Virus record (IMG/VR): IMGVR_UViG_3300032335_001026
Location: 1-53,984 of that record
Length of the DNA: 53,984 nt
DNA from: a virus
Lineage: Duplodnaviria; Caudoviricetes
Reading direction: 5' to 3' (one strand)
Part shown: piece after piece, positions 7,260 through 30,136 of the stretch
How positions within the stretch are numbered: the stretch's first letter is position 1
Layout: every line of letters begins with the position of its first letter
Program-made: the position numbers and the translations under genes
Notes under the pieces: generated by a model
Database searches by the model: none
What the model was told of the DNA's origin: nothing
Seen by the model: the letters and a program-made list of their open reading frames with translations, nothing else

Positions 7260-8918
7260 TCACACGCCGTATTTCGCAGCCAGTTCTTCCGTGTCAACCG
7301 AACCGCCCTGCGCCATCAAAGGCATCTCGCCCTTGAGCATTTTTTCCATGACGATGTCGGGGGATACGCCAAGGCGGTCGGCGGTGTATTTTATGCGCGC
7401 CTCAAACGTCTTCAGGAACGGCTCAGCAACAGAGCCGAGGCCCGTGTCTTCGCCGCCGCCGACCCACATCGAGGCTTGATACTGCGCGGGTGACATACCC
7501 ATCTTTTTGGCTTGGTCTTGCTGCCACGCCTCGTAGTAGCCGTACTCGTTGTCTTGGGGGGCCGACGCCCAAAAAGAGGGACGATCCACCGCCTCGTCCA
7601 TCGAGATAGAGCCGGACTCCAGCCAATCTTGCGGGCGATACGTCACCTTTGGCTTTTCGCCACCGAGTTTGCTGGCGAAGGCATCGAGGTCGGCACCCTG
7701 CATGTTCGGGTACTGCGCCATCAAATCGCTGATGATCGTAGCCCTGTCGTTCAATCCGGGTTTGACAAGCTCGTCGATAGAGGTTGCGAGGAAGCGTGGA
7801 TCTCGGCTGATGATACCCGGCAAACGGAAATTGTGCGTATCAATGGTGGAGACCTGCTGGTTGCCTTGCAGGTTGCTGGAAAAACTTGCGGGCTTCGGGT
7901 TCTCAAAGACGTTCCACCCGCCTTGCTGACCGATGTTACGGGCGTGCCTGACGTGGCTTTTCTGCGCGATAGAACCGTACCCCGGCGCTGGTTTGTCGGG
8001 TACTGGAAGGCCATTCTTCAGCAGATAGTTGTAGTACGACGCCATGCGGATGTTGTCTTGCACCTTGGCGCGAGGGCTGGTGGCCGCGACGATGTCCATG
8101 AGGCGCGCGTATTCGCCGGGCGCGTTGGTCGCGCCAACGGAACTGACCAAGCGCCGAAACAACGGATCAGTGTTGTACCACTCCTTGCCACCAAGTTCTG
8201 AGCCGCGATCAACGGTTTCGTTGATGCCCTTCACCACCAGTGGGTCGTTAAGCGCGTCAATGATGCGGGGCGACGGGCCGAGTCGAGGTTGATACCGAGG
8301 GATTTGAAACTGGGGTACATTCGGCACCTGACCGAGCGAACCGTAATCAAACATAGTACCCAGATCAGCCTCGTTGGCGGCCCGCCAATCCGAGAAAGAT
8401 GGCGCGCCTTTTTCCTTTCCCGAGGTAGCGGCAAACACGTCGGCGGCGAGGTCGCGGTTTGTACCAGAGCCCGTTTTCAAATAAGCGGGAGCGCTCGTTG
8501 CCTTCACGGCGAGAGGTGCCTTCGCCGGTGTTTTCGCGGGCGCGGCGGACTTCGCCACCTTCTTCGCGGCCTTGCCTGCGCCCGGAAGCGGCAGCGCGGC
8601 GAGCGCCACGTTGGCCGCCGCCTCGCCGCGCTTGCCCTCGCGGACGGCAAGAGCCGCCTCGTTGCCGACGAACGCGGCACCGGCGGGCGTGAAGTCAAGC
8701 ACCTGCATCAGCTTGTCGGCGTTCCTGCGCCCAACGCGCACCGCCAGTTTGTCCTTGAGTTGATCGCGCAGCGACACATCCCGGGCGCTAATCTCGCCAA
8801 ACTGCTGACCATCGTTGGCTCTGAGAGCCGCAAGTACCGCGCTGGGCGCGGTGTAGTCCACACTGAACTCGCCGCCGCGCTGCGGCGTCACGGCGAAGGG
8901 GGAGTCAGTGCTGCGCAT
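7260..8918 (-). CDS. Putative virion-delivered effector B: shared leader plus HhH-GPD glycosylase-like (DUF7178-like) domain
   Basis: WY..AATSP....N, K..F..NL, TIDTH..R, Y..E...A...G.SPAQYQA.MW; N-terminus paralogous to 8918-10192; C-terminal MAQGG. Confidence 0.65.
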   Translation of the reverse strand: MRSTDSPFAVTPQRGGEFSVDYTAPSAVLAALRANDGQQFGEISARDVSLRDQLKDKLAVRVGRRNADKLMQVLDFTPAGAAFVGNEAALAVREGKRGEAAANVALAALPLPGAGKAAKKVAKSAAPAKTPAKAPLAVKATSAPAYLKTGSGTNRDLAADVFAATSGKEKGAPSFSDWRAANEADLGTMFDYGSLGQVPNVPQFQIPRYQPRLGPSPRIIDALNDPLVVKGINETVDRGSELGGKEWYNTDPLFRRLVSSVGATNAPGEYARLMDIVAATSPRAKVQDNIRMASYYNYLLKNGLPVPDKPAPGYGSIAQKSHVRHARNIGQQGGWNVFENPKPASFSSNLQGNQQVSTIDTHNFRLPGIISRDPRFLATSIDELVKPGLNDRATIISDLMAQYPNMQGADLDAFASKLGGEKPKVTYRPQDWLESGSISMDEAVDRPSFWASAPQDNEYGYYEAWQQDQAKKMGMSPAQYQASMWVGGGEDTGLGSVAEPFLKTFEARIKYTADRLGVSPDIVMEKMLKGEMPLMAQGGSVDTEELAAKYGV

Positions 8919-10192
8919 CAGTTGAGCATCCCATATTCGCGCAGCAGGCGCGCTTTCTCGTCGTAGTTGCCGGGCGTCACGGCGAGACCGCCACGGGCGA
9001 AACTCTGTTCGGCTTCATACTCTGCCATGGCGGCGGCGGGAATAGCCATGCCCGGAGCCCAGCCGTAACGCTTGAGGATGGAGATCAGCTTGTCGTCGAA
9101 CACGACATAATTGCGCGTGCCGTCGCCAGCGCCACGGCTGCCTTGGTCAAGGTATTTGATGCCCGCTACACCCTGATCGGCCATGCGCTTAGCGATTGCC
9201 GACGCGCTTTTAGCTGTAGGCGACAAATCAGAGCCGCGTTTCCATCCCGTCATGGCAGCATAAGCGCCAGAACCAGACATTTTGTCGGCAATATCCGGCA
9301 GGATGCGCGATTGTGCTGCTATTGCCCGTTCAACTTCAGGCTGTGCCAGAATAACCGCCCGCAACTTCTCGCTCTGCCCGCTCAACGGCGCATCGTAGTC
9401 CAGAAAATCAGCCGGGTCTGCGTCGATGCGGACTTGATACATGGAGCCTTTAGGTACGTCCATTGTTTTACGAAATGCCTCAATCAAATCAGGAGTAAGT
9501 TCTTTTCCTGAATAATTAGCAAAGTCTCTAGCCGCAACTTCTGGGAACAAATTATTTGTTGTTCGTGCAAAAGTCATCGCATGTCCTCTGTCGTTCGGAG
9601 ACAGACCTATTTTTTTAAACTCTATCGAGTTCATAGCGCCTTTAGTCAGCGCATCGCGATACCCCTGCGCCACATCTTCGTTCTCCGCAAAATACAGCCC
9701 GTGGCCATACGCCTGCGCGCCTTCGCCTGTGCCAATCTTGCTCATGTCGAAGCGGTCAAACGTGTGCGGGCTGCCGTGATAGGCGATGATGCCTCGCGGC
9801 TTGACTGCCAGCGGTGCCACCTTCTTCAGTGCCTTACCCGCGCCGGGCAACGGCAGTGCGGCAAGGGCCACATTGGCCGCAGCCGCTCCACGACGTCCCT
9901 CGCGGGCAGCCAGCGCCGCCTCGTTACCCACGAACGCGGCACCAACGTGCGTGAAGTCGGCCAAGTCAATCAGCTTGTCGGCGTTCCTGCGCCCAACGCG
10001 CACCGCCAGTTTGTCGCGGAGCTGATCACGCCACGATGGCTCGCGCGCCTCAAGGCGGCCACGCCCGACGATGTCCGTCGGATCGAGCAGATCGGCGACA
10101 TCGGCGCTGGGCGCGCTGTAGTCCACACTGAACTCGCCGCCGCGCTGCAGGCGCTGGGGTGTCACGGCGAAGGGAAAGTCGGTGGAGCGCAT
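8575..10192 (-). repeat. Duplicated leader-coding sequence of the two effector genes
   Basis: 47-nt identity 8707-8753 = 9969-10015; 45 nt with one mismatch 8839-8883 vs 10104-10148. Confidence 0.9.
8918..10192 (-). CDS. Putative virion-delivered effector A: shared leader plus ADP-ribosyltransferase-like (ART-PolyVal-like) domain
   Basis: AYHGS..F..F...IGTGEG.QAYG.GLYFA, GIKYLD...NYVVFD; C-terminal FARGGLAV. Confidence 0.7.
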   Translation of the reverse strand: MRSTDFPFAVTPQRLQRGGEFSVDYSAPSADVADLLDPTDIVGRGRLEAREPSWRDQLRDKLAVRVGRRNADKLIDLADFTHVGAAFVGNEAALAAREGRRGAAAANVALAALPLPGAGKALKKVAPLAVKPRGIIAYHGSPHTFDRFDMSKIGTGEGAQAYGHGLYFAENEDVAQGYRDALTKGAMNSIEFKKIGLSPNDRGHAMTFARTTNNLFPEVAARDFANYSGKELTPDLIEAFRKTMDVPKGSMYQVRIDADPADFLDYDAPLSGQSEKLRAVILAQPEVERAIAAQSRILPDIADKMSGSGAYAAMTGWKRGSDLSPTAKSASAIAKRMADQGVAGIKYLDQGSRGAGDGTRNYVVFDDKLISILKRYGWAPGMAIPAAAMAEYEAEQSFARGGLAVTPGNYDEKARLLREYGMLN

Positions 10193-13100
10193 TATCGCGG
10201 GCCTCCGGGCATGGTGGACAGACCACTCATGTCTTCTTCTGGCTGGTCAGCAGCAACCGTGCCCGCCGTCGCCCCCCGCGAAATCGAGCTCAACGTACTC
10301 GCCAACTTGGAAAGCCTGTCAGGCGATGTGCGCTGCAGCAAACTGGCCGCCAGCGTCGGGTCGAGCATAGCCTCGCGTGCGAGAGCCGATATCGCGCCAG
10401 TGTCAGCCACGGCACCTATCACGAAGTCCAGCATGCGCGTCGCACGTCCGGCACCCGGCACAACACCCTCCACCACCAAACGCGCGACTTTGTCCGCAAG
10501 GAAGTTTTTGTTGAGCGCAGTGTCGCTGCCGCTTGTGCGCGCGGCCGTGTTGGCGAAACGCAACGCCTTCAACTGCCGCCGCACCTCGGTCAGAACCCGT
10601 GTCTGCTCGGCCGTGAACAGGTTGGTGTTGCTGACCTTCTGCAACACCGTGTTCAGGTTTTCCAAGGTACGCATCGGCGGGGCCACCACGTCGCCGCTCG
10701 CGGTCATGCCGCCCTTCAGATCACCCGGCAGTATAAAGTCCACCAGCGTCCGGCGCAGGCCAGCCTGAGCGTTTTGATCGTTGCGTACAGCCCCCGCCAT
10801 GTTCCGCAGAGCGCGGCCGTCATCCTTGGCCCTGACGGCGGCAGCAACCGACTCGGACGGGCTCACGGTCGCGGTTCTGAGACGCCCCAGAGGCGATGCG
10901 GCAAAAGCCTCCGCCAACGCGGCGGCGTCCCTCGCCGCAGTCACGTCAGCCATCAGGCCCGGATACTCTGCCAGAACCGGCCCGTAGCGGTTCGGTGACA
11001 TCAGGGTGCTGATGGCATCGGCATCATTTCCGGCGGCGGTCAGCGCCCGGCGCAGCTCCTCCCGCGCCGCCTGCTCTGCGGCTTCAGGCCCTGCGGCGGT
11101 GACCAACCGGCGCGTTGCCGTGCCGCCAGTGATGTTGCCGGGGACGACCGTACCCGGCACCCGCGAGGTATCCAACGTCGGGCGGGCGAAGGGATCTGTC
11201 GCCAGAACCCGTCCCGGTTCGTTTTCCGCGAATGTCGTCTTGAAGTTGCGATAGGCGGCACCCGCCTCCCGCAACGCCTCTGCCCGAGCGGGGCCGGCTT
11301 GGGACAACAGCAAACCTTCGGTCGCATTTGCTGCCGCCGAGGCAAGGGCACCAGAACGCGCATCGCTCATCTTGAGCAAGCGAGACTGCCTACGCAAATC
11401 TTCAGCGATACGTTCGACTTGGCGCGCTGACATCACGTCGGCGTTTTCGAGTTGCCGTATCAGGGACGAAACGCTGCTATCGGCTGGCAATCCCGCGCCG
11501 GGAAAAAACCTTCTGCGAAGGGTCATCAAAGATGTTTGGAAAGGCGACAACAACGACCGGCCTTCCGCCACATCAGCACCACCGCTGAGAAACTCAACGT
11601 CGGCCGCTGTTACCGGCTGCTCAGGCAGATCATTGATATCGCGATACAGCGCATCCCAATCGTCCGCGCGCATTTGCTCGGGGTCGAGATTACGCTCATC
11701 CAAAATCTGTGAAATGTAGTTTTGGTTTTGCTGCCGTGCCTGCACTTCCGCTCGCGTTAGCTGGCCTTCCGCGTTCATAACGCGTTTACCAGCGGCACCC
11801 CGCCCAGTGGAGGCCAGATCATCTACCAAGGTGGTGAGAAAATCATTTGCGCCGTAATCGTCAGGCGCGCCGTCAGGTTCCTTCGAGATGAAGCCTCGTT
11901 CACGCGCAGACTGAACTATCTTGTCCAACTCCATGCGCGGATTGGCTTTGTTGTTGTAGAGATCCGGACGCTGTTTAGGCCCGTACCCCAACCTCGACAG
12001 CTCGCGCCCCAATGGGCTTTCTGGATGCACTTGGCCTTTGAGCATGCCGGCGAGTGTGCCGCCCTGCGCTCGCATACCCGCCGCCTCGGCATCAGGAATG
12101 CGCTCTTTGAGCGTTTCTTGAACGTAACGGGTGAACCGGCCGACAGCGTCATCACCACCGGGGGGCGCACCAACACCGACATCAATCGCACCGACCTGTA
12201 TAGGCTCGGCGTCCTCGGGGATCGCGCGATACTGCTCGCGAACATCCGCCTTGGCTTGCTTCGCCCGCTCAACGAGTTGCGCCCGCAATACCTCACCTGA
12301 CACGTCAGGCGGGTTGAGCGAGCCAACACGCTCCCCGGCTCGCCGTGTCGCGGCCTCGAGTGCGTTTTGCTGTGCGGTCGCCGCCGCAACCAGCGCCTCG
12401 GGATCACCCTGACCCGCCGCTTCGCTGACCGCCCTAGCGCGTGCGGCCATGTTGGCCTGCATGCGGTTGCTCATCTCAGCGGCGGCGGTCACGTCCGTGT
12501 TGCCCAAGACGCGCTGCAAGGATGCCAGACCGGCGTCACCAGCCACCTCGGCAGTCGTGGGAGCAACGCCGGGCAGCGTGTTCATGTCCAACTGCTGCTG
12601 GATGGAGCGAACAGCATTCGCGGGATCGATAGCGTAGCGCTGCAAGAGGGAAGCGGCACCGTTTTTGGCGAAGTCAGTCGATAGCGGGGAGAGCAAAGTC
12701 GTCAACGCCGTCTTGATGCTGGGGAAAGCCGCCACGGGTACGATGCCCCCAGCCAGTCCGGCGACAAACTGACCGAAGTCGCCGTAACCCGCCTCCTCGG
12801 CTACCGCGCTCGAAAGTCCGCTGGTGCCGCCGGCAACGCTCTGCAAGACGGGTTGGGAGGCCAGCGTCTCGCCGATCGCGGCGACAACAGGCGCGCCATA
12901 CTTGGCCATCAGTTGGCCGATACCGACGCCAGACAGCGCGCCGCCGAGACCCTCGCCAGTGCGCTCAACTAGCTCTTGGTTAGGGGCAGTCGGCTGGAAG
13001 TAGTCCAAGGCACCGCCGATCGTCTGCGGGTTCTTCAGGCCCTCAACGATATCGGTCGGGGCACCAAACAACTCAGCCACAGAACCCATGCCGTAGCCCA

Positions 13101-13461
13101 GCCCACGGGCCAGCATGTCGGGGAGGCCAGCAACGCCTTTGACGATGCCTTTGGAGAACGTCGCGGGCAGGGCGTAGGCATCCGCGTCTTGCACCGGGGC
13201 GGGGCTCACATCGCCACCAAACTCCGCCGCAAGTGCGGCGTAGTCAGAAGGCGGTATATCGACAGTAGCAACTGGCTCTACATCTGCACCCGGAACGCCA
13301 CGCGGCACGCCAGACTTCTCGGCAGGCGGTGCCGTCCTCTCAGGCGAGACATTCACCCGCAGAACGGGCCGACCCGTCTTGTCCGTCGTCATGCCGCCAG
13401 CAGCGTCAGTTTCGATGTTGCCGCCAAGTTGACGAGCCAATGCCTCGTAATCTGTGGCCAT
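10192..13461 (-). CDS. Large internal virion / DNA ejection protein
   Basis: 1089 aa, Ala-rich and helical with Gly-rich hydrophobic segments; distal position in the virion operon. Confidence 0.65.
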   Translation of the reverse strand: MATDYEALARQLGGNIETDAAGGMTTDKTGRPVLRVNVSPERTAPPAEKSGVPRGVPGADVEPVATVDIPPSDYAALAAEFGGDVSPAPVQDADAYALPATFSKGIVKGVAGLPDMLARGLGYGMGSVAELFGAPTDIVEGLKNPQTIGGALDYFQPTAPNQELVERTGEGLGGALSGVGIGQLMAKYGAPVVAAIGETLASQPVLQSVAGGTSGLSSAVAEEAGYGDFGQFVAGLAGGIVPVAAFPSIKTALTTLLSPLSTDFAKNGAASLLQRYAIDPANAVRSIQQQLDMNTLPGVAPTTAEVAGDAGLASLQRVLGNTDVTAAAEMSNRMQANMAARARAVSEAAGQGDPEALVAAATAQQNALEAATRRAGERVGSLNPPDVSGEVLRAQLVERAKQAKADVREQYRAIPEDAEPIQVGAIDVGVGAPPGGDDAVGRFTRYVQETLKERIPDAEAAGMRAQGGTLAGMLKGQVHPESPLGRELSRLGYGPKQRPDLYNNKANPRMELDKIVQSARERGFISKEPDGAPDDYGANDFLTTLVDDLASTGRGAAGKRVMNAEGQLTRAEVQARQQNQNYISQILDERNLDPEQMRADDWDALYRDINDLPEQPVTAADVEFLSGGADVAEGRSLLSPFQTSLMTLRRRFFPGAGLPADSSVSSLIRQLENADVMSARQVERIAEDLRRQSRLLKMSDARSGALASAAANATEGLLLSQAGPARAEALREAGAAYRNFKTTFAENEPGRVLATDPFARPTLDTSRVPGTVVPGNITGGTATRRLVTAAGPEAAEQAAREELRRALTAAGNDADAISTLMSPNRYGPVLAEYPGLMADVTAARDAAALAEAFAASPLGRLRTATVSPSESVAAAVRAKDDGRALRNMAGAVRNDQNAQAGLRRTLVDFILPGDLKGGMTASGDVVAPPMRTLENLNTVLQKVSNTNLFTAEQTRVLTEVRRQLKALRFANTAARTSGSDTALNKNFLADKVARLVVEGVVPGAGRATRMLDFVIGAVADTGAISALAREAMLDPTLAASLLQRTSPDRLSKLASTLSSISRGATAGTVAADQPEEDMSGLSTMPGGPR

Positions 13462-14240
13462 TACCGGATCCCAGCCTTGCGCTTGAACACGTCCGCAGCT
13501 TGCTGATTTGGAAAGGTGGCAACCCTCCCGTCAGGCAACGGCACCCGTACCTTCTGTGCGGGCGCAGAATACTTATCGGTTAGTTGGCCCATTTCACGAT
13601 CGAGATAATCCCGAACACGCTGTGTCTGCGACAGGAACTGTTCGCTGCTTTGATTGGGATCTAGGTTGGCGATCGAGGCTGCCATGCGCTGCGCCTCAAT
13701 CGGCGAGTTCACCATTCCAGTGACACCGCCTTGATTGATTTGCGCCATTTTAGCTATCATGTCCTGCATCAACCTAGCCTTGATGGACTCATTTACGGCT
13801 TCAAAGTCAACGCGGGGCTGATCCAGAAGGCCCCCAATAATCGGTAGATTTGTGATTATTTCAGCCGGTCTTCCGGCAGTGAGAAAGTTGTCCCTCGCCA
13901 TCTTTTCAGCTTTTTCCAGCTCAGTAAGCGTAGACTGCAAACCCGCCAGACGTGATGGGTCAGCAGCCTTCGCCTTTGGCGGCGGTTGCCCGGGGTTGAG
14001 GAAAAACCTGCCCAAACCATCGATCTGGTAGCTGACATTCGGATCGAGCCCTTGGGCCTTCACCTCTTCGGGAGTGGCTCGCCTGCGCTTCGACGCTAAC
14101 GCGTTGCGACGCTCCGCAGCCAGAGCGATAGCGGCAGACGTCTGCGACGCCGCCGCCGACGCACCGCTCTGGGTGATCCCGGCCTCAATGTCGCGCTCCT
14201 TGAGCGTTGGCTTGTCAAACTGATCGTAAGGGTTCGCCAT
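13461..14240 (-). CDS. Putative ejection/internal virion protein
   Basis: Coupled ORF (MANPYDQFD) in the ejection cluster. Confidence 0.6.
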   Translation of the reverse strand: MANPYDQFDKPTLKERDIEAGITQSGASAAASQTSAAIALAAERRNALASKRRRATPEEVKAQGLDPNVSYQIDGLGRFFLNPGQPPPKAKAADPSRLAGLQSTLTELEKAEKMARDNFLTAGRPAEIITNLPIIGGLLDQPRVDFEAVNESIKARLMQDMIAKMAQINQGGVTGMVNSPIEAQRMAASIANLDPNQSSEQFLSQTQRVRDYLDREMGQLTDKYSAPAQKVRVPLPDGRVATFPNQQAADVFKRKAGIR

Positions 14241-14939: not shown

Positions 14940-16061
14940 TTAGAAAATGCCGGCGTCTTTGAGCGCCTTGAACGCGCCCGCGAGGCCCGTCACCGTGCTG
15001 ACGCCCGCCTGCAACGCGCCCGGCGCGTAGGTTTGATCTTGCCCCGGCGCGCCGTAGCCCTGTTGCAGTTTGGCCTGCGGAACGGCGGGGGCCACGGCCG
15101 CCAGCGTCTGCGACATCGCGCCCAACTGCTGTTGCGGGTAGGCAAACTGCTCGCGGCGGTCGGCCTCGGCGAGGTCGAGGTTGCGCTGCGTCTGGCCCTG
15201 CTGCAACGCACCCACCTGCTGTAGCGCGCCCGCTCCGGTGAGTTCTTGCGCCTGCCGCTGCTGGCCGAGCGCGCCCATCTGTTGCGCCGCTGAAAGCTGC
15301 GTCGAGGTATCTGCGCCGTACAGTTGGCCGGTACGCGCGCCGAGATCGGCGAGGATTTGCTGCTGAGCCTGCGTCAGGCCCCCGGCGGTGCTGGCGAGGG
15401 CGGCTTGACGCGACAGGTCAGTCTGCGCCGCCTGCTGCGCCTGCCCGTAGCCCTGCTGAAGCGCCTGCGCCTGCTGGGCACTGATGCCCTCCATCGTGTC
15501 GCGGATGCCGCGCCCCGTCAGCTCTGCCTGCCGCGTGCCGCCAAACTGGCCGGCGCGGATCATCGCGCCTTCAATGCCGGGCAGAATTTGCTCGCGAAGG
15601 GTACGCGCGCCCACCTCGCCGATGCGGTTGACGACGGCGTCCTGATACGGGTTCATGTACTGGCCGACGACCTGCGGCGCGGTCTGGGCCGCTTGCCCTA
15701 AAAAGGGCTGGGCGGCGTCAACACCGGACATGCCCGCCGCCTGCCCCATCAGCGGCTGCGCCGCGCCCAGCGCCGATCGGCCAAATGCGCCCTGCGTCTG
15801 CTGCGAGGCCATATCAAGGGCCGGTCGAAACGACATGGCACCCTGCCGCGTGGCTTGGAAGCCGGCCTGCTGGTCGGGCGTGAAATCGGCGATGCGCGGC
15901 CCTTGGGACATCGAGAAGGGCCGGTTGGCCACGGCCCGCTGCTGCGACAGGATATCCATCGCGTAGTTGGTGTACCAGTCCGGCAACACGTTCTGCGTCG
16001 TGGACGCGTAGGGCTGCGCTTGGATCGGCTGCCCCTCTGTCATGAAGTCAAAAATACCCAT
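14940..16061 (-). CDS. Gln/Ala/Gly-rich DNA ejection (pilot-like) protein
   Basis: YMNPY....V, AGQFGGTRQ, Q-rich helical repeats. Confidence 0.7.
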   Translation of the reverse strand: MGIFDFMTEGQPIQAQPYASTTQNVLPDWYTNYAMDILSQQRAVANRPFSMSQGPRIADFTPDQQAGFQATRQGAMSFRPALDMASQQTQGAFGRSALGAAQPLMGQAAGMSGVDAAQPFLGQAAQTAPQVVGQYMNPYQDAVVNRIGEVGARTLREQILPGIEGAMIRAGQFGGTRQAELTGRGIRDTMEGISAQQAQALQQGYGQAQQAAQTDLSRQAALASTAGGLTQAQQQILADLGARTGQLYGADTSTQLSAAQQMGALGQQRQAQELTGAGALQQVGALQQGQTQRNLDLAEADRREQFAYPQQQLGAMSQTLAAVAPAVPQAKLQQGYGAPGQDQTYAPGALQAGVSTVTGLAGAFKALKDAGIF

Positions 16062-18109
16062 TACACGCGGCCCCCAGAGAGGTAATTCTCAGGCCGTTTA
16101 GCGTTAGCACTAAACTTGCCCTTGGCCAAGTTGCGGCCCTTGTGTTTGCGGATGTTGACGCGCAGGTCGTCGAGGCGCTCGGCACCCGCCTTCCCCGATC
16201 CGTCGCCCAGCATGGCGACCGTCTCGGCGTCGATGACATACTCCCCGTCGCTCAGCAGCGCGGGGATCTCGTCACTGCGGCCGGTGCCGGCCCCGTTGAC
16301 GGCGCGGCTCTTGCGCGGCGCGCTCCCGCCCTTCGCGGCGAACATGCCACCCTCGGCGAAGTTTTTGGGCGCGAATTGCGACATCTGCTGGCCGACCGGA
16401 CTTCGCATGTAGTCCGCGATCTGCGCGTCAGTCGCGCCGGGTGCCATCCGGCGCACGTAGTTCGCCACCTCATTACCCGGCGGTATGTAGCCCATGGGCT
16501 CGACGGGGGTGTTGGCCGCCAGAGCCGCCCTGTATTCGGCCGGGGTGCGCGGCACGTTCTCGAAGAAGGACTGCGCCGGGCTGTAGCCGTAGCGCGCGAA
16601 GTCAACGCCGCTCATGTCGCGAGGTGCGAAGGATTGCGGCGCGAAGTTGCCCCGCGCGGCCGGAAGCTGCGCGCCGAAGACTGGATTGAGCGAGGATGCC
16701 GTGCCGATCGCGCCAGCGCCTGTTCCAAGGCTGCCAGCGCCACCGCCCTTGCCGCCGCCCGTGTTGATACCGAGCAAGCCGGTGATGGTGTCGAGGGCCG
16801 ACAAACCGGTGAGGACTTTGCCGATAGTTGACTTCGTGCCGTCCTTCTGCGCCTGCTCTTTCGGCTGCTCGACGGCGCGCTCTGAGAGCGTCTGCGCGTT
16901 CTCTGGGCCGAGGGCATTTGCGGCAGCGGCACCAGCAGCAGCCGCGAGAGCGCTGTCGATACCGACAGGGTTCTTCGTTATGTCAACAACGATTTCCGGG
17001 TCTTCCGTTGCAGCCGGTTCGGTCTGACGGCCGAGCATGTCCGAGACCTGCGGCAGCGTTGGCGACAGGTTGCTGATCCCCGTGCTGAGCGCAGCGCCGC
17101 CGAGGCCGGAAAGCGCGGGAGAGACGGCGTTCCGCGCGGCTTGCACAAGGATTTCGCCCGGCACGCTGCCCGCGATCGCGCCGCCGAGGCCGGACAGCGA
17201 CGGGGCGACAAACGCCGGCAGAGACATGACACCACCGCCAAGACCGGCAACGGGCGCGTTAAGCGCGATGTCCAATCCCGGAGCCGTGCCGCCCGGAACC
17301 GGCGCAGCGCCGGACAACCCGCTCAACGCGCCAGCACTGAGTCCGGCGATAGCTGCCTTAGTAAGCGCAGTCTCCAAGGACGCGCCTGTACCAAGGCTGC
17401 CCGCAAACATCCCTCCAGCCGCGCCAAGACCGGCACCGAGGGCACCCGGCACAAGGGCCGTTGCGCCTTTGGCGAAAGCTCCGGGCAGGCCGATAACGCC
17501 CGCGCCCATAGCCGCAAGAGCGGCCGGCAAGGCTACATCAAGGAAGCCGTTGTTGTTCGGCTGGTTGGCGTACACATCTGCAAACGCGGTGCTCGGCTGG
17601 CCTTCCGGCGTTGCCGTCTGCACTTCCTTCTGGAGACGCACGTCAACTTTGGCACCGCCGCTTTTCGAAGCCGAGTTCGCGTACTCGACCAGCCGGGCAA
17701 CCTCCTCCGGCGTGGAGGCGGAACCGACCACTTGGCCGCCGATAGTCAGCCGGTAATTCGTATCGGGAAGTGCCTGAAAGTTGAGATTCTCGTACTCCTT
17801 GTTGCCGGTCAGCGACAAGATCGGCGCGGTCTTCGCGTAGTTGTACAGCGGATCGAGGGGGCTGAGCGTGCCGGGCTGGAGCGTGGAGAGGCCCCCAGCG
17901 GCGTTGAACAGCGGGCTGCGCCCCGCGAGGGCAGCGCCTTGTTGTATCTGCTGGAGTAGTTCAGGCGTCATCGCAGGCGCAGCAGGCTGCGCGGCGGCAG
18001 CCGGCAGACCGCCGTAGGCAGCAGGCTGCGACATCGGCTGCGCGTAAGACGTAGCAGCCGGCAGACCGCCGTATCCCGAGAAGTCGTCGAGGAACCCGTT
18101 GCCGTACAT
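16061..18109 (-). CDS. Virion protein with hydrophobic core and tape-measure-type C-terminal motif
   Basis: FAEGG...GAGTGRSDEIPALLSDGEYVIDAETV; ATG at 18109 via TGATG. Confidence 0.7.
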   Translation of the reverse strand: MYGNGFLDDFSGYGGLPAATSYAQPMSQPAAYGGLPAAAAQPAAPAMTPELLQQIQQGAALAGRSPLFNAAGGLSTLQPGTLSPLDPLYNYAKTAPILSLTGNKEYENLNFQALPDTNYRLTIGGQVVGSASTPEEVARLVEYANSASKSGGAKVDVRLQKEVQTATPEGQPSTAFADVYANQPNNNGFLDVALPAALAAMGAGVIGLPGAFAKGATALVPGALGAGLGAAGGMFAGSLGTGASLETALTKAAIAGLSAGALSGLSGAAPVPGGTAPGLDIALNAPVAGLGGGVMSLPAFVAPSLSGLGGAIAGSVPGEILVQAARNAVSPALSGLGGAALSTGISNLSPTLPQVSDMLGRQTEPAATEDPEIVVDITKNPVGIDSALAAAAGAAAANALGPENAQTLSERAVEQPKEQAQKDGTKSTIGKVLTGLSALDTITGLLGINTGGGKGGGAGSLGTGAGAIGTASSLNPVFGAQLPAARGNFAPQSFAPRDMSGVDFARYGYSPAQSFFENVPRTPAEYRAALAANTPVEPMGYIPPGNEVANYVRRMAPGATDAQIADYMRSPVGQQMSQFAPKNFAEGGMFAAKGGSAPRKSRAVNGAGTGRSDEIPALLSDGEYVIDAETVAMLGDGSGKAGAERLDDLRVNIRKHKGRNLAKGKFSANAKRPENYLSGGRV

Positions 18110-23908: not shown

Positions 23909-23945
23909 AAGACACCCTATAAAGCAGTCTTTCAGACTGCGGTGG

Positions 23946-24113
23946 TTAACTGATCTTCGTCACGATGGTGACCAGCAGCATGATGATCGTGCCGGCCACG
24001 CCTATGCCAATATTCTCCAAGCGCTTCAGCCGCGCGCTGATCCCTTCGTAGCGCAGCGCGCACACTTCCTCGTGGGTGTTCAGCCGTGCTTCGGTTTGGT
24101 CGATGGTCGTCAC
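23946..24113 (-). CDS. Small membrane protein (XhlA/holin-like), not in the ORF track
   Basis: MTTIDQTEARLNTHEEVCALRYEGISARLKRLE followed by a C-terminal TM helix; 55 aa. Confidence 0.75.
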   Translation of the reverse strand: MTTIDQTEARLNTHEEVCALRYEGISARLKRLENIGIGVAGTIIMLLVTIVTKIS

Positions 24114-24122
24114 GTCAGCGCC

Positions 24123-24485
24123 TCACTTCAGGTTTTCGAGTTTGTAGATGGTGGAGAGGTAGACGCCCGTGACGGTGTCGATCAGGTTGGCAATCGCGCG
24201 ATTGCCGCCGCAGATTTCTTCGTGGTGCTCCTCAATCCACGCGGCGTCAGCCTTCAGGATCTTGAGGCTGTCGCCTGCGGTGTCGGCCGGCGCGGGGATG
24301 TTGCCGATCAGGCCATACTGGCCCTGATGCGCCTCGACCAGCGCGTCGATCGCCTCGATAATCTCGTCGTAGAAAGTGCCCAGCGCCATGTGCTTCGCAA
24401 AGCTGCCGACGCCGGTTGCGCGCCAGTGGTCGAAGTGGGCGAGGTTGCGAGCGTAGAACACCCGGCTGATGAGTTGCTCAATCAT
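24123..24485 (-). CDS. DUF5856 ferritin/Dps-like protein
   Basis: AHFDHW...SFAKHMALG.FY....D.LVE.HQG; STIYKL. Confidence 0.75.
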   Translation of the reverse strand: MIEQLISRVFYARNLAHFDHWRATGVGSFAKHMALGTFYDEIIEAIDALVEAHQGQYGLIGNIPAPADTAGDSLKILKADAAWIEEHHEEICGGNRAIANLIDTVTGVYLSTIYKLENLK

Positions 24486-24496
24486 CGCGTGGTTCC

Positions 24497-25114
24497 TTAT
24501 GTGTAAGCGAACGAAACTTGGCCGCGTGCGCCCGTGCCGGATGTAACACCCCCAGCATCAAAGCCGCTACCACCACCGCCACCGCCGGGAGCCGTGCCGT
24601 CAATTGTGCCGAGGTAGCTACCACCTGCGGCCCCGCTTGCGCCTGCACCCCCCGGCCCATCAAACGATCCATCGCCGCCTGCGGTGCCTGAAGTGTTAGT
24701 ATCGCCACCAGTAGCGCTACCGCCACCGCCGCCAGTGAATGAATCGCCACCGCCTCCACCGTTGGCAGTCATACTTACCGAACCGCCAGAAACAGTGCCC
24801 GATACGCTTGAGGCGTTGCCCCCCGTCCCGCTACCGCCGGTATTGCGCCCGTTGACAGCGTCGCCGACCGTGTAAGTCATGGAGTTACCGCCGATCACCG
24901 CGATAGTCTTGATCGAACGGCCACCGCCACCACCGCCCCCACCTATGGTGCTGCCGCTATAGCCCCCGGCACCGCCGCCGCCGTCCAGCGTGATAACAAC
25001 CTGCGTAGCGCCCGTAGGCACTGTTTCAGTAGCGGCAGTGCCAGACGTGTATGTGTTGGTGACGGGGGTGAAGCCCCCGACCGATCCCAGCAGCGCCATT
25101 TGGATGCCGCTCAT
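24497..25114 (-). CDS. Glycine-rich tail fibre tip / adhesin
   Basis: GGGGxGG repeats; TGATG-coupled to the fibre gene. Confidence 0.75.
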   Translation of the reverse strand: MSGIQMALLGSVGGFTPVTNTYTSGTAATETVPTGATQVVITLDGGGGAGGYSGSTIGGGGGGGGRSIKTIAVIGGNSMTYTVGDAVNGRNTGGSGTGGNASSVSGTVSGGSVSMTANGGGGGDSFTGGGGGSATGGDTNTSGTAGGDGSFDGPGGAGASGAAGGSYLGTIDGTAPGGGGGGSGFDAGGVTSGTGARGQVSFAYT

Positions 25115-26808
25115 CAGGTCACTCCCGCGCCGGAGATGATCGCCTCGGTTGCACTGTTGAACCAGACGGTAGCCAAGCCGCGCGCGGCCAGCGTGCGGTT
25201 GCCCGTGGTGGCTGTCCCCGCGAGGCGCAGGGTAAGGCTGGCACCCTGCGTGATCGTGATAGCAGACGCGCTGTTGTTGTAGATGGAGACGGCGTCGCCG
25301 GCAGCGAAGGTGCTGTTCGGGATCGTGATGCCCGCAGTGACCGCGATGCACTTGCCGACATCCGCCACCACTGCGGTGCCGCTCGTGGTTGAGCGGGGGA
25401 TGCTGCGGTACCCGATGGTGACGCCGTCAATGGTCGCCGTCGTGGCCACCGAGGTGACGCTGCCGCTCAGGGTGATGTTGCCGGTGGTGGTAACCGTACC
25501 GGAAAGAGACAGGCCGTTGGTTGAGCCGGTGCCGCTGACCGAGGTGACAGTGCCTGTGGTCGAGCTGGTGCCCGCGCCGATGGCGGTGCGGAAAGTCGCC
25601 GCGTCGAGGGTGCTGATCGTGTCGTCCGCGTTGATGCGGACGAAGGTCACCGAGCTGGGGTTGGTCAGCGTGAAGAAGTTAGCCCCCACCGTCGTGGCAC
25701 CCAGACCCGTCCGCGCCGCGCTCGCCGTCGTCGCGCCCGTGCCGCCGTTGGCAACGGCCAATGTGCCGGTGAGGGTCAGCGTACCGCTTGTGGTGATCGG
25801 CGAGCCGGTGAAGCTCAAGCCCGTCGTGCCGCCCGATGCCGCCACGCTGGTGACGGTGCCGCCGGACGCCGTGGACGACAGCGTGCCGGCCGACAGCGAG
25901 AGGCCGGAGCCGATCGTGATCTCCTCGATGGCCCCGGCGCTCGCCGTGGTGCGGCCCAACATGCGGGCCGTGTTCATCGTCAGGCCGCTCGAGCCTACAG
26001 CCCCCGACGCGGCCGCGCCTATGCCGGAGCGCGCCGCGCTCGCCGTCGTGCCGCCCGTGCCGCCGTTGGTAACGGCGAGCGTGCCGGCGAGGGTCAGCGT
26101 CCCGCTCGTCGTGACCGGGCCGCCGCTGAACGTCAGGCCGGTCGTGCCGCCCGAGGCGTTCACCGAAGTGACGGTGCCGCCGCCGCCCGCCGTTGCGGCG
26201 ATGGTGATGGCACCCGAGCCGTTCGTGATGGTGATGCCGGAGCCGGCGGTGAGCGTGGCCTTGGTCAGCGTGTTGCCGGTGGTGTTGCCGATCAGCAGTT
26301 GGCCGTCGGTGTAGGTCGTCTGTCCGGTGCCGCCGCTGGCCACCGGCAGCGTGCCGCTGACATGCGTCGTCAGGCCGATCTTGCCGTATGCCGGGGCAAC
26401 GCCCACGCCGCCCGAGATCAGCGCATTGCCCGTGGCCACGTCGGCCAGCTTGGACAGGGCGGTGCTCGTTGAGGCAAACAGGATGTCGCCGATGGTGTAC
26501 GAAGACTGACCCGTCCCGCCGTTGGTGGCGGCCAGCGTGCCGCTCAGGGTCAGCGTGCCGCTGCTGGTGATCGGCGAGCCGGTGAACGTCAGGCCGGTCG
26601 TGCCGCCCGAGGCCGCCACGCTGGTGACGGTGCCGGTCGCGGTAGAGTCCGTCAGCACCTTGACGACGCCAGCGGCGTTCTTGAAGTACAACTTCTCGTC
26701 GGTGAGGTTGATCGCCAGCTCACCGGCCGCGAGGTTGCCCGCCAAGGGCACCGCAGCGGCCGTGGTCGATCTGTACAACTGGATGGGCGTGAAGCCACTT
26801 TGCGACAT
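25114..26808 (-). CDS. Tail fibre protein
   Basis: GELAINLTDEKLYFK; 3-4 copies of GTVTSV..SGGTTGL.F.G.P.T.SGTLTL.GTLA..NGGTG. Confidence 0.85.
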   Translation of the reverse strand: MSQSGFTPIQLYRSTTAAAVPLAGNLAAGELAINLTDEKLYFKNAAGVVKVLTDSTATGTVTSVAASGGTTGLTFTGSPITSSGTLTLSGTLAATNGGTGQSSYTIGDILFASTSTALSKLADVATGNALISGGVGVAPAYGKIGLTTHVSGTLPVASGGTGQTTYTDGQLLIGNTTGNTLTKATLTAGSGITITNGSGAITIAATAGGGGTVTSVNASGGTTGLTFSGGPVTTSGTLTLAGTLAVTNGGTGGTTASAARSGIGAAASGAVGSSGLTMNTARMLGRTTASAGAIEEITIGSGLSLSAGTLSSTASGGTVTSVAASGGTTGLSFTGSPITTSGTLTLTGTLAVANGGTGATTASAARTGLGATTVGANFFTLTNPSSVTFVRINADDTISTLDAATFRTAIGAGTSSTTGTVTSVSGTGSTNGLSLSGTVTTTGNITLSGSVTSVATTATIDGVTIGYRSIPRSTTSGTAVVADVGKCIAVTAGITIPNSTFAAGDAVSIYNNSASAITITQGASLTLRLAGTATTGNRTLAARGLATVWFNSATEAIISGAGVT

Positions 26809-26827
26809 CAGGGTGTTCCTTCATGTG

Positions 26828-26906
26828 CTCGAGATATGGCACCGATGGCGGTGCGAACGCCATCGGTGCCTCCACGAGACGTGGGGAGCACGCCAGAGGT
26901 CTCGAG
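26828..26906 (-). other. Intergenic stem-loop structure upstream of the fibre gene
   Basis: 13-bp stem 26838-26850/26858-26870 enclosed by ctcgaga/tctcgag. Confidence 0.55.
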
Positions 26907-26911
26907 GATCT

Positions 26912-27151
26912 TCATACCGCGCCCTGTGGGTCGAGGGGTGTGTCGGGGCGCGCGAAGCGCAGGGCGATCTTCTCAGGCTGGCGCGCCGGCAGGCGATACG
27001 GATCGTAGTTGTCGCGGTCTGCGTCGCAGCACAACAAACCGGGGTAATTCGGATCTGGCAGAAGTTCGGTCATGCTGAATTTGCGCGAACAACGCCCGCA
27101 AATTCCAATCGAAAGGGTGCTCTTGCCACGGGTGTCGAGGAAGATTGGCAT
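26912..27151 (-). CDS. Small Cys-motif virion-module protein
   Basis: CGRC...CC..D.D.YDP...RPD. Confidence 0.75.
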   Translation of the reverse strand: MPIFLDTRGKSTLSIGICGRCSRKFSMTELLPDPNYPGLLCCDADRDNYDPYRLPARQPEKIALRFARPDTPLDPQGAV

Positions 27152-27155
27152 GCGC

Positions 27156-28142
27156 CTACCTCGTGTACATGGCGATGTTGGGCGCGAGCATCATCGGGCT
27201 GTTGTCGCGCTCCTCGGCCTGCGCCGTGTAGAGTGCGACATTGGCCTTCTGGTCGAGCAGCGGGATCAGCGACACGTCCACTTCGGCAATCTCGAGCGCC
27301 AGCTTCGACGCCAGCATGGCCACGATCGCCTCATACCAGCGCTGCGGCACCTCGAGTTCTTGCGTCATCGTCCCCACGTCCATGATGTAGCGCTGCACCC
27401 ACAGGACGATTTGCGACGTAGTCGCGCCACTGTTTGGCACTGGCCAGAGCCGCATCACGGGATTTGGGATCAAGCGGTCGTACCAGAACTGAAGCGGCCG
27501 GTTTGATTGGAAGCTCTTGTTCGGCAGGTTCGTGTAGTCGTCCCGGTTCAGCCGCGCCAGCGGGATCTCGGTCGGCGTGTTGCCGGTGTAGATGTCGAGG
27601 AAGTCTAGGGTGCCGCTGGTGGCCCGCACGCGGAAGTACAGAGTGGCCACGCTGCTTTCGAGATCGTACCAAGTCCACTCCCCTGCGGTGGCTACGGGTG
27701 TTTCGGTCTGGATCGTCGTCCACGTTACGCCGTCGTCGGAGCGCTCAAAGGCGACCGGCACAGACGCCGCCGACCAGCGGATGCCGACCGTCGTGACGAA
27801 GGTGGTGCCGGTGAAGGTGATCGTGCGGGTGGTGGACGTGGTGGCATTGGTGCCGGTCACCGTCTGCAACTGGCGCAGGTTGCTGTTGAGGATGTCCACG
27901 ACCTTGGTGTCGAGGGTGATGTAGCCCTCGCCGTCATAGAGCGGCAGGATTTGCTTCTCGATGCACCACAGCGGCGCGCCCATGTTGGCGAGATCCGACA
28001 GTAGCAGATATAGCAGATTGTTGGCCGTGGCGACATACTCAGCCGTGATCGTCTCCGTGCGCACACGGCAGCGCCGGAAGGCACTCTCCATGAGCTTCCG
28101 AGTGTCAAACACGGTCTGTGATATGGTGTTGCTGTACGCCAT
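27156..28142 (-). CDS. Head-tail connector / tail tubular A-like protein with inserted beta domain
   Basis: RDDYTNLPNK...RP.QFW.DR...LWPVP, VPQRWYEA. Confidence 0.75.
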   Translation of the reverse strand: MAYSNTISQTVFDTRKLMESAFRRCRVRTETITAEYVATANNLLYLLLSDLANMGAPLWCIEKQILPLYDGEGYITLDTKVVDILNSNLRQLQTVTGTNATTSTTRTITFTGTTFVTTVGIRWSAASVPVAFERSDDGVTWTTIQTETPVATAGEWTWYDLESSVATLYFRVRATSGTLDFLDIYTGNTPTEIPLARLNRDDYTNLPNKSFQSNRPLQFWYDRLIPNPVMRLWPVPNSGATTSQIVLWVQRYIMDVGTMTQELEVPQRWYEAIVAMLASKLALEIAEVDVSLIPLLDQKANVALYTAQAEERDNSPMMLAPNIAMYTR

Positions 28143-28204
28143 CAAGCCTGCTCGCTGGTCGGGATCAGCAGCCTGCTATCAAGAGCAGACATCTCTGGCG
28201 GGGT

Positions 28205-28243
28205 GACTATACAAGAAGTGGCGTCCGGCAACAAGCCGGACGC
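28205..28243 (-). promoter_or_regulatory. Hairpin overlapping a putative promoter
   Basis: ggcgtccggc/gccggacgcc stem; TTGTTG-17-TATAGT. Confidence 0.5.
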
Positions 28244-28250
28244 CCCTGTT

Positions 28251-29111
28251 TCAGCACTTGCCCTTCGGCATGACGGCGAGGCCGCCTCTCTTCATAGGTT
28301 CGTACATACGGGTGTCAAAATTGGCCAGATCAGCGGAACTCATACCGGGCGGAGGCGACCGATAACCGATAACTTTTCGCGACGGCATAGGCTCCCTCGT
28401 CGGCGTGATTCCCGTCGGTATAGGCTTCTTCGTCGGCGGGGTAATGGGCTCCCTCGTCGGCGGGGTTCGCGTCGGTATAGGCCCCTTCGTCGGCTGCGCG
28501 CGGGCCTTCGCCGCATCCGCTTGCGCGCGGGCCTGTTGCGCGCGAGCCTGAAGCTGCTGCGAGCGCGCCCGCTGATCCGACATCACGCGGTTTGCCTGCG
28601 TGAGAAGATTGCTGGGATTTTTGACAACGTCGAGCGGGCCGCCGCGCGGATTCGAAGATGCGGTGGTACCGGGGCGCGGAGTCGTGGCGGTGCTTGCTGC
28701 TGCGGTGGTACCGGGGCGCGAGGCCTGAGTGGTCGCCGCGCCCTGCTGGACGGGGCCGCCAGCCGCCTTCTTCTGCACATCGCCACCCTTCTTCATCGCC
28801 GGCCTTGGTTCTACGGATACCCTAGGTTCCATCGTCGGCGTGATTCCCGTCGGGATAGGTTTTTTCGTCGGCGGGGTAATGGGCCCCTTCGTTGGCGGGG
28901 TAATAGGCTTCATCGGCCCCTTCGTTGGCGGGGTAATAGGCTTCATCGGCCCCTTCGTTGGCGGGGTAATAGGCTTCATCGGCCCCTTCGTCGGCGGGGT
29001 TCGCGTCGGAGGAGTTTTCCCCGGCATCTTGGCATCGCCGCCCTTGGCGTAGCCGCCGACCATGCCGCCGCCCATGTACTTCATCTTGGTGCTGTCTTTG
29101 AAGCCGTCCAT
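28251..29111 (-). CDS. Pro/Thr/Lys-rich low-complexity protein with multiple xxxGG motifs
   Basis: KGPMKPITPPT repeats; YAKGG, MKKGG, MKRGGLAV. Confidence 0.75.
   Translation of the reverse strand: MDGFKDSTKMKYMGGGMVGGYAKGGDAKMPGKTPPTRTPPTKGPMKPITPPTKGPMKPITPPTKGPMKPITPPTKGPITPPTKKPIPTGITPTMEPRVSVEPRPAMKKGGDVQKKAAGGPVQQGAATTQASRPGTTAAASTATTPRPGTTASSNPRGGPLDVVKNPSNLLTQANRVMSDQRARSQQLQARAQQARAQADAAKARAQPTKGPIPTRTPPTREPITPPTKKPIPTGITPTREPMPSRKVIGYRSPPPGMSSADLANFDTRMYEPMKRGGLAVMPKGKC
28882..29000. repeat. 33-bp tandem repeat, about 3.6 copies
   Basis: Unit ggccccttcgttggcggggtaataggcttcatc. Confidence 0.95.
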
Positions 29112-29115
29112 TGCC

Positions 29116-29373
29116 TTATCCCTTCACACGAAAACTGGCGGTCTTTTCCGCAACCTTCTTTGGCTGCTTGGCGAACTGTTTGCCAGCGGCAGTCGCCTTC
29201 CGTTTTGCGCGGGTGGTCGCGGCGTACTCCCTGACCGACAGCGACTTAATCGCCTTCGCCGGCAGATACCGCTCGCCAGTCGCCTCGGAGCCCTGCGTTG
29301 ACGGCTTGCCGGACTTGGTGCGCCAGTCCTGCTTCGTCCACGCCTTGAGGCTCTGCTGCGACTTTTTAATCAC
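29116..29373 (-). CDS. Basic DUF5872-like protein
   Basis: GTG start; QQSLKAWTKQDWRTKSGK...TGERYLP. Confidence 0.7.
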   Translation of the reverse strand: MIKKSQQSLKAWTKQDWRTKSGKPSTQGSEATGERYLPAKAIKSLSVREYAATTRAKRKATAAGKQFAKQPKKVAEKTASFRVKG

Positions 29374-30136
29374 GGTAGCCGCCGCCTTTGGCTTTGTACT
29401 GTTGCGCCAGCATTTGTGCCTTGCGGGCCGACCACTGCCCCGGCGCGCCGCCCTTGCCGCCCGCCTTGATCGAGTTGAACAGGCCCTTGCGCATCGTCGG
29501 CTTCGTGTAATTGCCTGCCTCGTTGACGCGCGACTCGCCGCCCTCGGCATAACCCTCGACCATGCCGCCCTGCGCCTTGCAGTCCCACTTGCGGAGCGCC
29601 AGCGCCTTGCGCGTCGGCTTGCCGCTCTCGTCCTTCATCGGCCCTTCCATGCCGCCCATCCGGGCGCAGAAGCTCTTGCGCCGCGCGGCCGACTTGGGCG
29701 ACTTAGCGGCCTGTTTGGCGCTCACGGGCGGCTTGATGTCCTGCCCCTGCGCTTTCAGCGAGGCGCGACCCTTGGCGTTGAGGCCTCCCTCGGGGTTCTT
29801 GCCCTCTTTTCGCGTCCACGCGCCGCCCCCGGAGGCGCGTTTGACGGCGAAATCCTTGGAAACGACGCGCCCACCCTTCTTGAAAGGCTGCTGAGCCGCC
29901 ATCGGGGGCCGCATGGAGCCCATCTGGCCCATCGGCGCGCCCATTTGCGGCATTTGGGGCTGCATCGGCTGCATCTGACCCATCTGAGGCTGCATCTGAC
30001 CCATCTGAGGCTGCATTTGCGGCATTTGGGGCCGCATCGGAGCCGCCATCGCGCCCTGCTGCATGACGCTCAGCGCGTCGTTGATCTCATCCCGCGCCCG
30101 CATGGCGTTCTGGTCGAAGGCAAAACCACCGGGCAT
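29366..30136 (-). CDS. Basic multi-module protein (PQM repeats, DUF6321-like, NYTKP module)
   Basis: GKNPEGGLNAKGR..RRKSFCARM...ALRKWDC; NYTKP...GQWSARKAQ; modules separated by xxxGG. Confidence 0.75.
   Translation of the reverse strand: MPGGFAFDQNAMRARDEINDALSVMQQGAMAAPMRPQMPQMQPQMGQMQPQMGQMQPMQPQMPQMGAPMGQMGSMRPPMAAQQPFKKGGRVVSKDFAVKRASGGGAWTRKEGKNPEGGLNAKGRASLKAQGQDIKPPVSAKQAAKSPKSAARRKSFCARMGGMEGPMKDESGKPTRKALALRKWDCKAQGGMVEGYAEGGESRVNEAGNYTKPTMRKGLFNSIKAGGKGGAPGQWSARKAQMLAQQYKAKGGGYRD

Follow-up and report, generated by a model that had tools for sequence, protein, structure and literature searches.

A Gly-Gly junction peptide at module borders of proteins probably packed and injected by a short-tailed phage

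Among phage tape-measure proteins, only those of T5 and lambda are known to be cut, according to a 2025 paper (PMC12617516). In T5, cleavage after R1127 divides the protein, pb2, into pb2* and pb2C (Linares et al. 2023, PMC10038345). The lambda protein, gpH, is processed to gpH* and gpHC by a cut within a glycine-rich region, for which the 2025 paper gives both site and catalyst as undetermined (PMC12617516); its position and mode have been open for decades. Here we describe a short Gly-Gly peptide, [FYM][AK]xGG, that recurs in late proteins encoded by IMG/VR record IMGVR_UViG_3300032335_001026 (positions 1 to 53,984; the window hereafter), a stretch of 53,984 base pairs that constitutes the whole genome of a short-tailed phage in one contig of ~64% G+C. 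The peptide is real and conserved, and it marks junctions in proteins that this phage probably packs and injects; it probably acts as a shared, previously undescribed signal for cutting or for docking.

Other described systems resemble parts of this arrangement. The podophage P22 provides a case of an ejection protein, gp7, that loses 20 N-terminal residues through the host peptidase OpdA (GenBank BK000583 note). In its sequence the residues SYPE precede the cut and KGGKGG follows, such that a Gly-Gly run stands directly past the site; the length removed is near the 19-21 residues of the window-type leaders described below, but gp7 has no [AK]xGG form and no detectable homology to the proteins studied here. 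Host involvement in the cutting of a T5 tail protein is reportedly the subject of a 1973 paper, to judge from its title. Polyvalent proteins are defined by two to fifteen effector-type domains per polypeptide. They are encoded in late operons, include ART-PolyVal-like, PcfJ-like and other conflict domains, and are thought to be delivered together with the DNA; proteolytic release of their domains has been proposed (Iyer et al. 2017, PMC5512222), in a main text that contains neither the word "glycine" nor the word "linker". ART-PolyVal-like and PcfJ-like cargo domains likewise come from the late operon in the window phage or its relatives, but the cargos of the window phage lie in separate genes, each with a common leader, N-domain and tail, and carry no embedded peptidase. 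Finally, T4 internal proteins bear a short targeting leader that ends at a site of the phage's own prohead protease (L/I-x-E sites). For P1, an N-terminal capsid localisation signal has been described in DarB (PMC9024508). As in these phages, a short conserved N-terminal leader is common to different proteins of the present group; unlike in T4, no prohead protease was found among the window or related-locus proteins, and the effector leader ends in Gly-Gly.

The strict motif, [FYM][AK]xGG, was detected eight times in the window, in 5 of the 31 late proteins (11,018 amino acids, aa), and is absent from the remaining 26; a wider form, [RKFYML][AK]xGG, was also considered. All of the instances named in the preliminary description exist and lie on the minus strand, as do all coordinates given below unless stated otherwise. 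Two of the named strings, FAAKGG and KAQGG, do not fit the pattern under which they had been listed. The eight matches compare with 1.59 expected (standard deviation 1.25); none of 5000 composition-preserving per-protein shuffles reached eight, and no strict match occurs in the 23 early proteins (4,282 aa). The earlier observation is confirmed. Taken singly, the 286-aa protein (0 of 5000 shuffles) and the 256-aa protein (P = 0.008) stand out, and the values for the two effectors (P = 0.08 and 0.08) and the 682-aa protein (P = 0.19) are non-significant. The accompanying satellite, [LF]AV[KT], was likewise borne out, with seven copies against 1.12 expected (seven being reached by 1 of 3000 shuffles), six of them in motif-bearing proteins. 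The codons vary among the eight copies, which places the conservation at the protein level and argues against a DNA repeat. The bearers had been described as unrelated; this is true of the other pairs, which have no significant similarity, but effectors A and B share an N-terminal domain of ~135 aa that is 67% identical. Because the pattern was defined after the data had been seen, conservation in relatives is the stronger test; it holds, and is weighted here above the count in the window. The pentapeptide would form the core of a junction peptide of about ten residues, with the consensus [FYMLRK][AK]xGG and, in many copies, L/F, A, V/A and K/R next.

The largest motif-bearing protein is a tape-measure-like ejection protein of 682 aa (16061..18109), with a Gly/Ala-rich hydrophobic middle and a conserved C-terminal module. 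FAEGG occupies residues 584-588 (16346..16360), 98 residues from the C-terminus, and is followed by MFAAKGG (FAEGGMFAAKGG from residue 584). The module past the motif (..AV.G.GTGRSD.IPA.LSDGEYVIDAETV.. to the end; 16064..16345) is the predicted plug fragment. The protein matches the PHROG tape-measure families phrog_6090 (E-value, E, 7.8e-6) and phrog_23013 (E 1.4e-4), over residues 599-654 of a 699-aa open reading frame (ORF) translation that starts 17 residues upstream; it also matches the gp16 tape measure of Douge (8zdo, E 1.2e-6) and, by tblastn, annotated tape measures of Vibrio, Arthrobacter and Nitrincola phages. In Douge gp16, the sole solved relative, the matching stretches are unresolved, the built part being residues 1658-1699 only. 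The last 129 residues recur in 7,276 representative proteins at E<=0.001. Among the best 150 of these, all contain the core ..GTGRSD.IPA.LSDGEYV.., and [AK]xGG lies 12-60 aa upstream of SDGEY in 140, in the strict form in 94; the residue preceding [AK]xGG is M, F, Y, A, R, K or L, and the predicted C-terminal fragment has a median length of 97 aa (range 85-119). The ortholog in Caulobacter phage RW reads MARGGYAVKG, while closer uncultured relatives have RRARGG or RRAKGG. In an AlphaFold2 (AF2) monomer model of the last 150 residues (mean predicted local distance difference test score, pLDDT, 61.5), the invariant stretch from the motif to GEYV has pLDDT <50.

The position of the T5 cut provides external support for a cleavage function of this peptide. 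In pb2 the residues FVPR precede the cut and AEGGMMYPG...GEHGTEVV follow it, so that cleavage takes place directly before A1128-E-G-G. A.GG occurs only twice in the 1219 residues of pb2, and the probability that the cut would coincide with it by chance is ~2 in 1218. The sole exactly mapped tape-measure cut therefore coincides with the motif. The order of elements is also alike: in pb2, A-E-G-G-M-M is followed ~15 residues on by GE..EVV, as FAEGGMF...GEYVI in the 682-aa protein, where FAEGG at 584 and SDGEYVIDAETV ~35 residues on give a layout, near the C-terminus, of A-x-G-G and a G-E-aromatic-V strand element ~15-45 residues past it; the C-terminal fragments measure 92 aa in T5 and, as predicted, 98 aa here. 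T5, however, is long-tailed, its pb2 is a genuine tape measure that also carries a muralytic motif, Arg stands before the Ala, and homology with the module of the 682-aa protein is without statistical support. The statement of the preliminary description that lambda-type tape measures carry FAxGG or YAxGG near their C-termini proved accurate: gpH has FATGG at 733, followed by GTGG... and then GEFVFTKEAT, and has YATGG 45 residues further, at 778; the 682-aa protein shows the same layout. A cut at 733/734 would yield 79.8 kDa (residues 1-733) and 12.5 kDa (734-853) and is compatible with the published fragment sizes, which further A.GG copies at 707, 711 and 718 fit about equally well. Direct profile comparison of the C-module gave no significant match to T5 pb2C (E 0.28) or to the C-terminus of lambda gpH (hhalign, E 0.23); the top local alignments fall on the motifs and the GE element.

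In the 256-aa basic protein (29366..30136), the motif separates modules. This protein comprises an N-terminal helix, a PQM-rich linker, a DUF6321 module (PF19846, E 1.6e-23, residues 112-184) and a last module matching phrog_17747 (E 4.5e-32, residues 201-255). FKKGG (residues 85-89; 29870..29884) lies in a disordered linker ahead of DUF6321 and YAEGG (residues 196-200; 29537..29551) in another ahead of the last module; a loose copy, KAQGG (residues 187-191; 29564..29578, as computed from the gene end), belongs to the wider form only. Among 5,904 database matches, the best 120 relatives include 118 with at least one strict motif, at constant positions just before a module. Three sites are apparent: [FY]A.GG followed by GAWTRKEG, before the DUF6321 module; [YF]AEGG followed by.SRVN, before the last module; and RFA[KR]GG[FL]AVKK, past the low-complexity N-terminal part. 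The AF2 model (54-row alignment; mean pLDDT 52.9, hence read for order versus disorder only) predicts a helix at the N-terminus and helical folds for the DUF6321 core and the last module, with both motifs in stretches of pLDDT <50. In Methylophilales phage MEP402, the two modules are encoded as separate small genes that start right past the would-be motif point and are free of the motif, which thus belongs to the joint and not to the modules. Copies are also present in the cultured marine Puniceispirillum phage HMO-2011 (genes 3651-3986 and 6258-6617), with LKKGG ahead of a SRVNEAGNYTKP module in gp63 and MAYGG plus YAAGG in gp67; the motif therefore extends well beyond the group of the window phage.

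The neighbouring 286-aa protein (28251..29111), basic and rich in Pro/Thr/Lys repeats, carries three motifs: YAKGG at residues 21-25 (29037..29051), MKKGG at 106-110 (28782..28796), and MKRGG, followed by LAV, at 273-277 (28281..28295), 13 residues from the C-terminus. Both an N-terminal MDGFKDSTKMKYMGGG..YAKGG and a C-terminal [FM]K[KR]GGLA[VA]MPKGKC are present in 57 of 57 database rows, one of which is a shorter ORF of the window itself. Most relatives have a PF20106 module after the first motif; in the window protein this module is replaced by tandem Pro/Thr/Lys repeats (KGPMKPITPPT-like), the motif-bearing ends being kept. A tblastn search with the 286-aa protein against cultured phages returned no match.

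The remaining two bearers are the effectors, each with one N-domain and one recognisable cargo domain, flanked by a leader and a motif-bearing tail. Effector A (424 aa; 8918..10192) has an ART-PolyVal-like cargo (PF18760, E 6.5e-7, 30.6 bits, just below the 31.2-bit cut-off) and, at residues 398-402 (8987..9001), 26 residues from its C-terminus, FARGG followed by LAV (FARGGLAV, 398-405). Effector B (552 aa; 7260..8918) has a DUF7178 cargo (PF23802, E 3.7e-6, 27.4 bits versus a cut-off of 27) and MAQGG at residues 535-539 (7302..7316), 17 residues from the end. In a language-model atlas of proteins, the look-alikes of the effector B cargo are DUF7178 clusters and a weak Ogg-like fold lead, with no peptidase among them. 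The N-domain is common to 54 proteins in seven cargo classes, including relatives with PcfJ-like and ParB-like cargos, and the motif-bearing tail occurs in most of these classes: it was detected in 16 of 16 ART-like proteins, 8 of 8 of an unnamed class, 3 of 3 with DUF7178 and 2 of 2 with PcfJ-like cargo, but in only 3 of 21 in the largest class and in neither member of another. A further two-member class has Lys at the first place of its tail and hence scores 0 of 2. Overall, 22 of the 54 N-domain proteins carry the strict motif and 34 the wider form. The tails are conserved within classes, with [FL]ARGG[LF]A[VA] within the last 50 residues of all 16 ART-class relatives and L[ML]A[QK]GG...KYG[VG] at the end of all three DUF7178-class relatives.

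At the other end of the effectors, the leaders MRSTDFPFAVTPQRLQRGG of effector A (10136..10192), with the satellite FAVTP and then a Gly-Gly end, and MRSTDSPFAVTPQRGG of effector B (16 residues; 8871..8918) belong to the same family. The leader, i.e., the first 16-19 effector residues, heads at least eight protein types in 24 related viral loci, and in 13 of the 24 a match is confined to it (residues 1-19/21, 79-100% identity, the rest of the protein being different). Its end is the looser form LQRGG in effector A and the strict motif, as RRYAEGG, in three loci, and many of the leader-bearing proteins terminate in ..ARGGLAVKKRKR or ..LLAVKKGRR. The satellite and the Gly-Gly element thus occur in two versions, an N-terminal unit (FAV..GG) and a C-terminal one (GG..LAV). 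The mobile leader is a candidate capsid-targeting sequence. For the packaging or ejection address suggested in the preliminary description, this 19-residue leader, with its similar Gly-Gly end, is a better candidate.

The first six residues of the leader, MRSTDF, are also residues 5-10 of the capsid protein (gene 34994-35908; hexapeptide 35879-35896). Some of these codons differ synonymously between the effector and capsid genes, and the hexapeptide is kept in 79 of 80 related capsid proteins. On this resemblance, the leader may mimic the N-terminal arm of the coat protein. In the capsid protein of Caulobacter phage RW, MNSTSF stands in place of MRSTDF, and the stretch of RW that was read contains no such effectors.

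We tentatively propose that the Gly-Gly junction peptide marks a seam in ejected proteins, or a point at which they are cut during maturation, and that a peptidase, possibly of the host, reads it; this proposal is the one we favour, although we put its chance at somewhat short of even. The peptide lies in disordered linkers at module borders of proteins probably carried in the particle and expelled at infection. Four kinds of border bear it in this genome: that of the last 98 residues of the tape-measure-like 682-aa protein, the end of the mobile 19-residue effector leader (in the looser form LQRGG), the effector tails of 17-26 residues, and the joints between small basic modules of the 256-aa and 286-aa proteins. 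Cutting would occur just before the Ala or Lys, as mapped in the T5 tape measure, and would free the cargo modules and the C-terminal plug fragment from the parts used in assembly. Since no peptidase of the phage could be detected, our first guess for the enzyme is one from the host, for which P22 gp7 and OpdA would be a precedent on a podophage ejection protein. Moreover, the lambda and T5 tape measures mature in tails, whereas podophage cargo lies in heads; a shared virion partner is thus hard to name, which makes a host enzyme or a self-reaction the more economical choice. The cleavage-site suggestion of the preliminary description has thus gained external support from T5; cutting in the present phage, the location of the bearers in virions and the nature of the enzyme are inferred.

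A number of observations weigh against processing of this kind. No peptidase family was detected in the 58 window proteins (E<=0.01) or in 41 proteins of seven related loci, and the matches of the capsid protein to PHROG rows named "protease" are confined to the capsid portion of fused families. A single site, that of T5, is exactly mapped, and there Arg, not F/Y/M, precedes the Ala; the comparisons of the C-module with the T5 and lambda termini are those found non-significant above. Cuts at the tail copies would release mere peptides of 11-26 residues, of no obvious use, and tandem copies (FAEGGMFAAKGG here, YARGGYAEGG in a relative) would suit a multivalent handle better than a lone site of cutting. 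Four likely internal proteins, of 373, 229, 260 and 1089 aa, are without the strict motif, so that it is no universal tag of late or internal proteins. Furthermore, the region of the T4 gp5 assembly cut has no Gly-Gly motif. That cut, which we take to be at S351/A352, was accordingly rejected as a site of the same kind.

Among the alternatives, a docking or assembly handle that acts without cutting is the most serious, although we consider it rather unlikely. Here the peptide, together with its FAV/LAV satellite, would be a short strand able to dock on a common partner or to pair with further copies of itself, keeping the cargo on the bundle of ejection proteins for joint packing and expulsion. 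Several features point this way: the motif stands at extreme protein ends (the leader end and the C-tails ..GGFAVKKGR, ..GGLAVMPKGKC and ..LAAKYGV), these endings are kept across differing cargo classes, tandem copies occur, and the effector leader carries GGEFSV, a stretch similar to GEYV/GEFV in the tape-measure module. In addition, the 682-aa C-module is predicted, as a monomer, to be disordered where it is most conserved, a pattern typical of segments whose folding depends on a partner. A single common receptor would, however, be hard to name, given that the lambda and T5 tape measures mature in a head-less tail, whereas podophage cargo lies in the head; moreover, the free-standing MEP402 modules lack the motif, and only 3 of 21 members of the largest cargo class have the tail. 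Less probable still is a passive hinge and shuffling seam, in which the peptide would be a flexible, protease-indifferent linker that marks module swaps. The motifs do lie in disordered linkers, and modules are gained, lost and replaced at them, as illustrated by the exchange of PF20106 for repeats in the 286-aa family, the varied cargos and the extra modules. Yet in the tape measures of siphophages, the ejection proteins of podophages and the small cargo proteins alike, a hydrophobic or basic residue, Ala and Gly-Gly are held fixed, for which a passive linker has no need; since the codons differ, the motif is not a site of DNA recombination, and neither the copies at the very ends of proteins nor the exact coincidence with the T5 cut would be explained.

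Accident of composition, whereby low-complexity proteins rich in Gly, Lys and Ala would yield the pattern fortuitously, is hardly credible. The 256-aa and 286-aa proteins are indeed rich in Gly and Lys, the single matches in the effectors and the 682-aa protein are individually unremarkable (P = 0.08-0.19) and the pattern was chosen post hoc, but no shuffle in 5000 attained the observed count, and each site is conserved at the same place in relatives, in numbers that contradict chance. Maturation cutting at the junction peptide and its FAV/LAV satellite may also be extended to a "cut here" code for all tail types, read by a conserved peptidase of the host and not of the phage, which would detach leaders, tails and the tape-measure plug from injected proteins; in the present phage group the leader, MRSTDF.., would copy the start of the coat N-arm, and the cargo would ride the scaffold into the procapsid. 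We regard this extension as improbable; if true, it would predict that lambda gpH is cut at F733/A734.

Several better-known Gly-Gly elements were also compared with the peptide. Double-glycine leaders cut by C39 peptidase transporters have hydrophobic residues at -4, -7, -12 and -15, and the effector A leader is similar in its length of 19 residues (within a range of 15-30) and its RGG end; its hydrophobic residues, however, are at -5, -10, -12 and -14, and no Pfam family for a C39 peptidase or an ABC exporter was found in the window. Adenovirus sites, (M/L/I)-x-G-G, are cut after Gly-Gly by a viral cysteine protease of clan CE; in the present motif the hydrophobic residue and Gly-Gly are one place further apart, T5 pb2 is cut before the Ala and not after Gly-Gly, and no such protease family was found in the window. 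Double-glycine bacteriocin leaders, adenain sites, ubiquitin-like LRGG ends and GlyGly-CTERM signals were all rejected, as their spacing or partner genes do not fit.

In literature searches on DUF6321, on linkers of polyvalent proteins and on the cleavage of gpH and tape measures, no description of the motif was found. The window adds three things: the code is distributed among separate genes in a short-tailed phage, an ejection protein of podophage type bears an end module like that of tape measures, and the effectors combine a leader with a tail. The motif links the mapped T5 cut, the glycine-rich region of lambda gpH, podophage ejection proteins and the seams of cargo and polyvalent proteins, and it supplies exact residues for mutation and exact fragment masses. 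If it were a general processing or docking signal, it would predict which phage proteins are packed and injected, and could be exploited to bring foreign proteins into the phage particle.

The late genes are encoded on the minus strand, from ~43,700 down to 7,260. They begin with the small and large terminase, an 863-aa portal, a GroES-like protein, an acidic scaffold-like protein and a 304-aa HK97-type capsid protein, continue with fibre-like proteins, the 256-aa and 286-aa basic proteins, adaptor-like proteins (including the SU10-type adaptor family PF24175, E 4.9e-29) and a nozzle-like structural protein, and end with large family-less proteins of 682, 373, 229, 260 and 1089 aa and the two effectors. 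This order indicates a podophage-type layout, in which the block past the nozzle gene would encode ejection proteins. The 682-aa protein would then resemble the C-terminal end of a tape measure in its working, yet not be a tape measure proper, given the podophage-like succession of SU10-type adaptor, nozzle-like protein and 682-aa gene and the absence of any tail tube or sheath family among the window proteins. An NCBIfam scan of nine proteins produced nothing informative. Among cultured phages, the Caulobacter "Riverwalk" group (RW, RLK, KcrB and GB2A) is the most closely related.

Other features of the genome were noted in passing. The 1089-aa protein (10192-13461) has no family match; in the language-model atlas it lies among unnamed viral clusters and near a cluster of the P22 gp16 ejection-protein family (score 0.95), a proximity that serves as a lead only. 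A gene for an HNH/homing endonuclease (527 aa; 33319-34902; phrog_559, E 6e-95) directly follows the capsid gene within the structural operon, and that for the GroES-like co-chaperonin (38031-38444; Cpn10, E 2e-9), which Caulobacter phage RW also possesses, lies between the portal and scaffold genes. Among the early genes, a GapR-like DNA-binding protein (1859-2113, plus strand; PF10073, E 1.4e-30) is consistent with a Caulobacter-type alphaproteobacterial host. Lastly, an apparently similar Gly-Phe-x-(Phe)-Asp start is seen at the N-termini of four proteins that are likely internal: MPGGFAFD (30113-30136), MDGFKD (29091-29111), MYGNGFLDDF (18080-18109) and MGIFDF (16044-16061).

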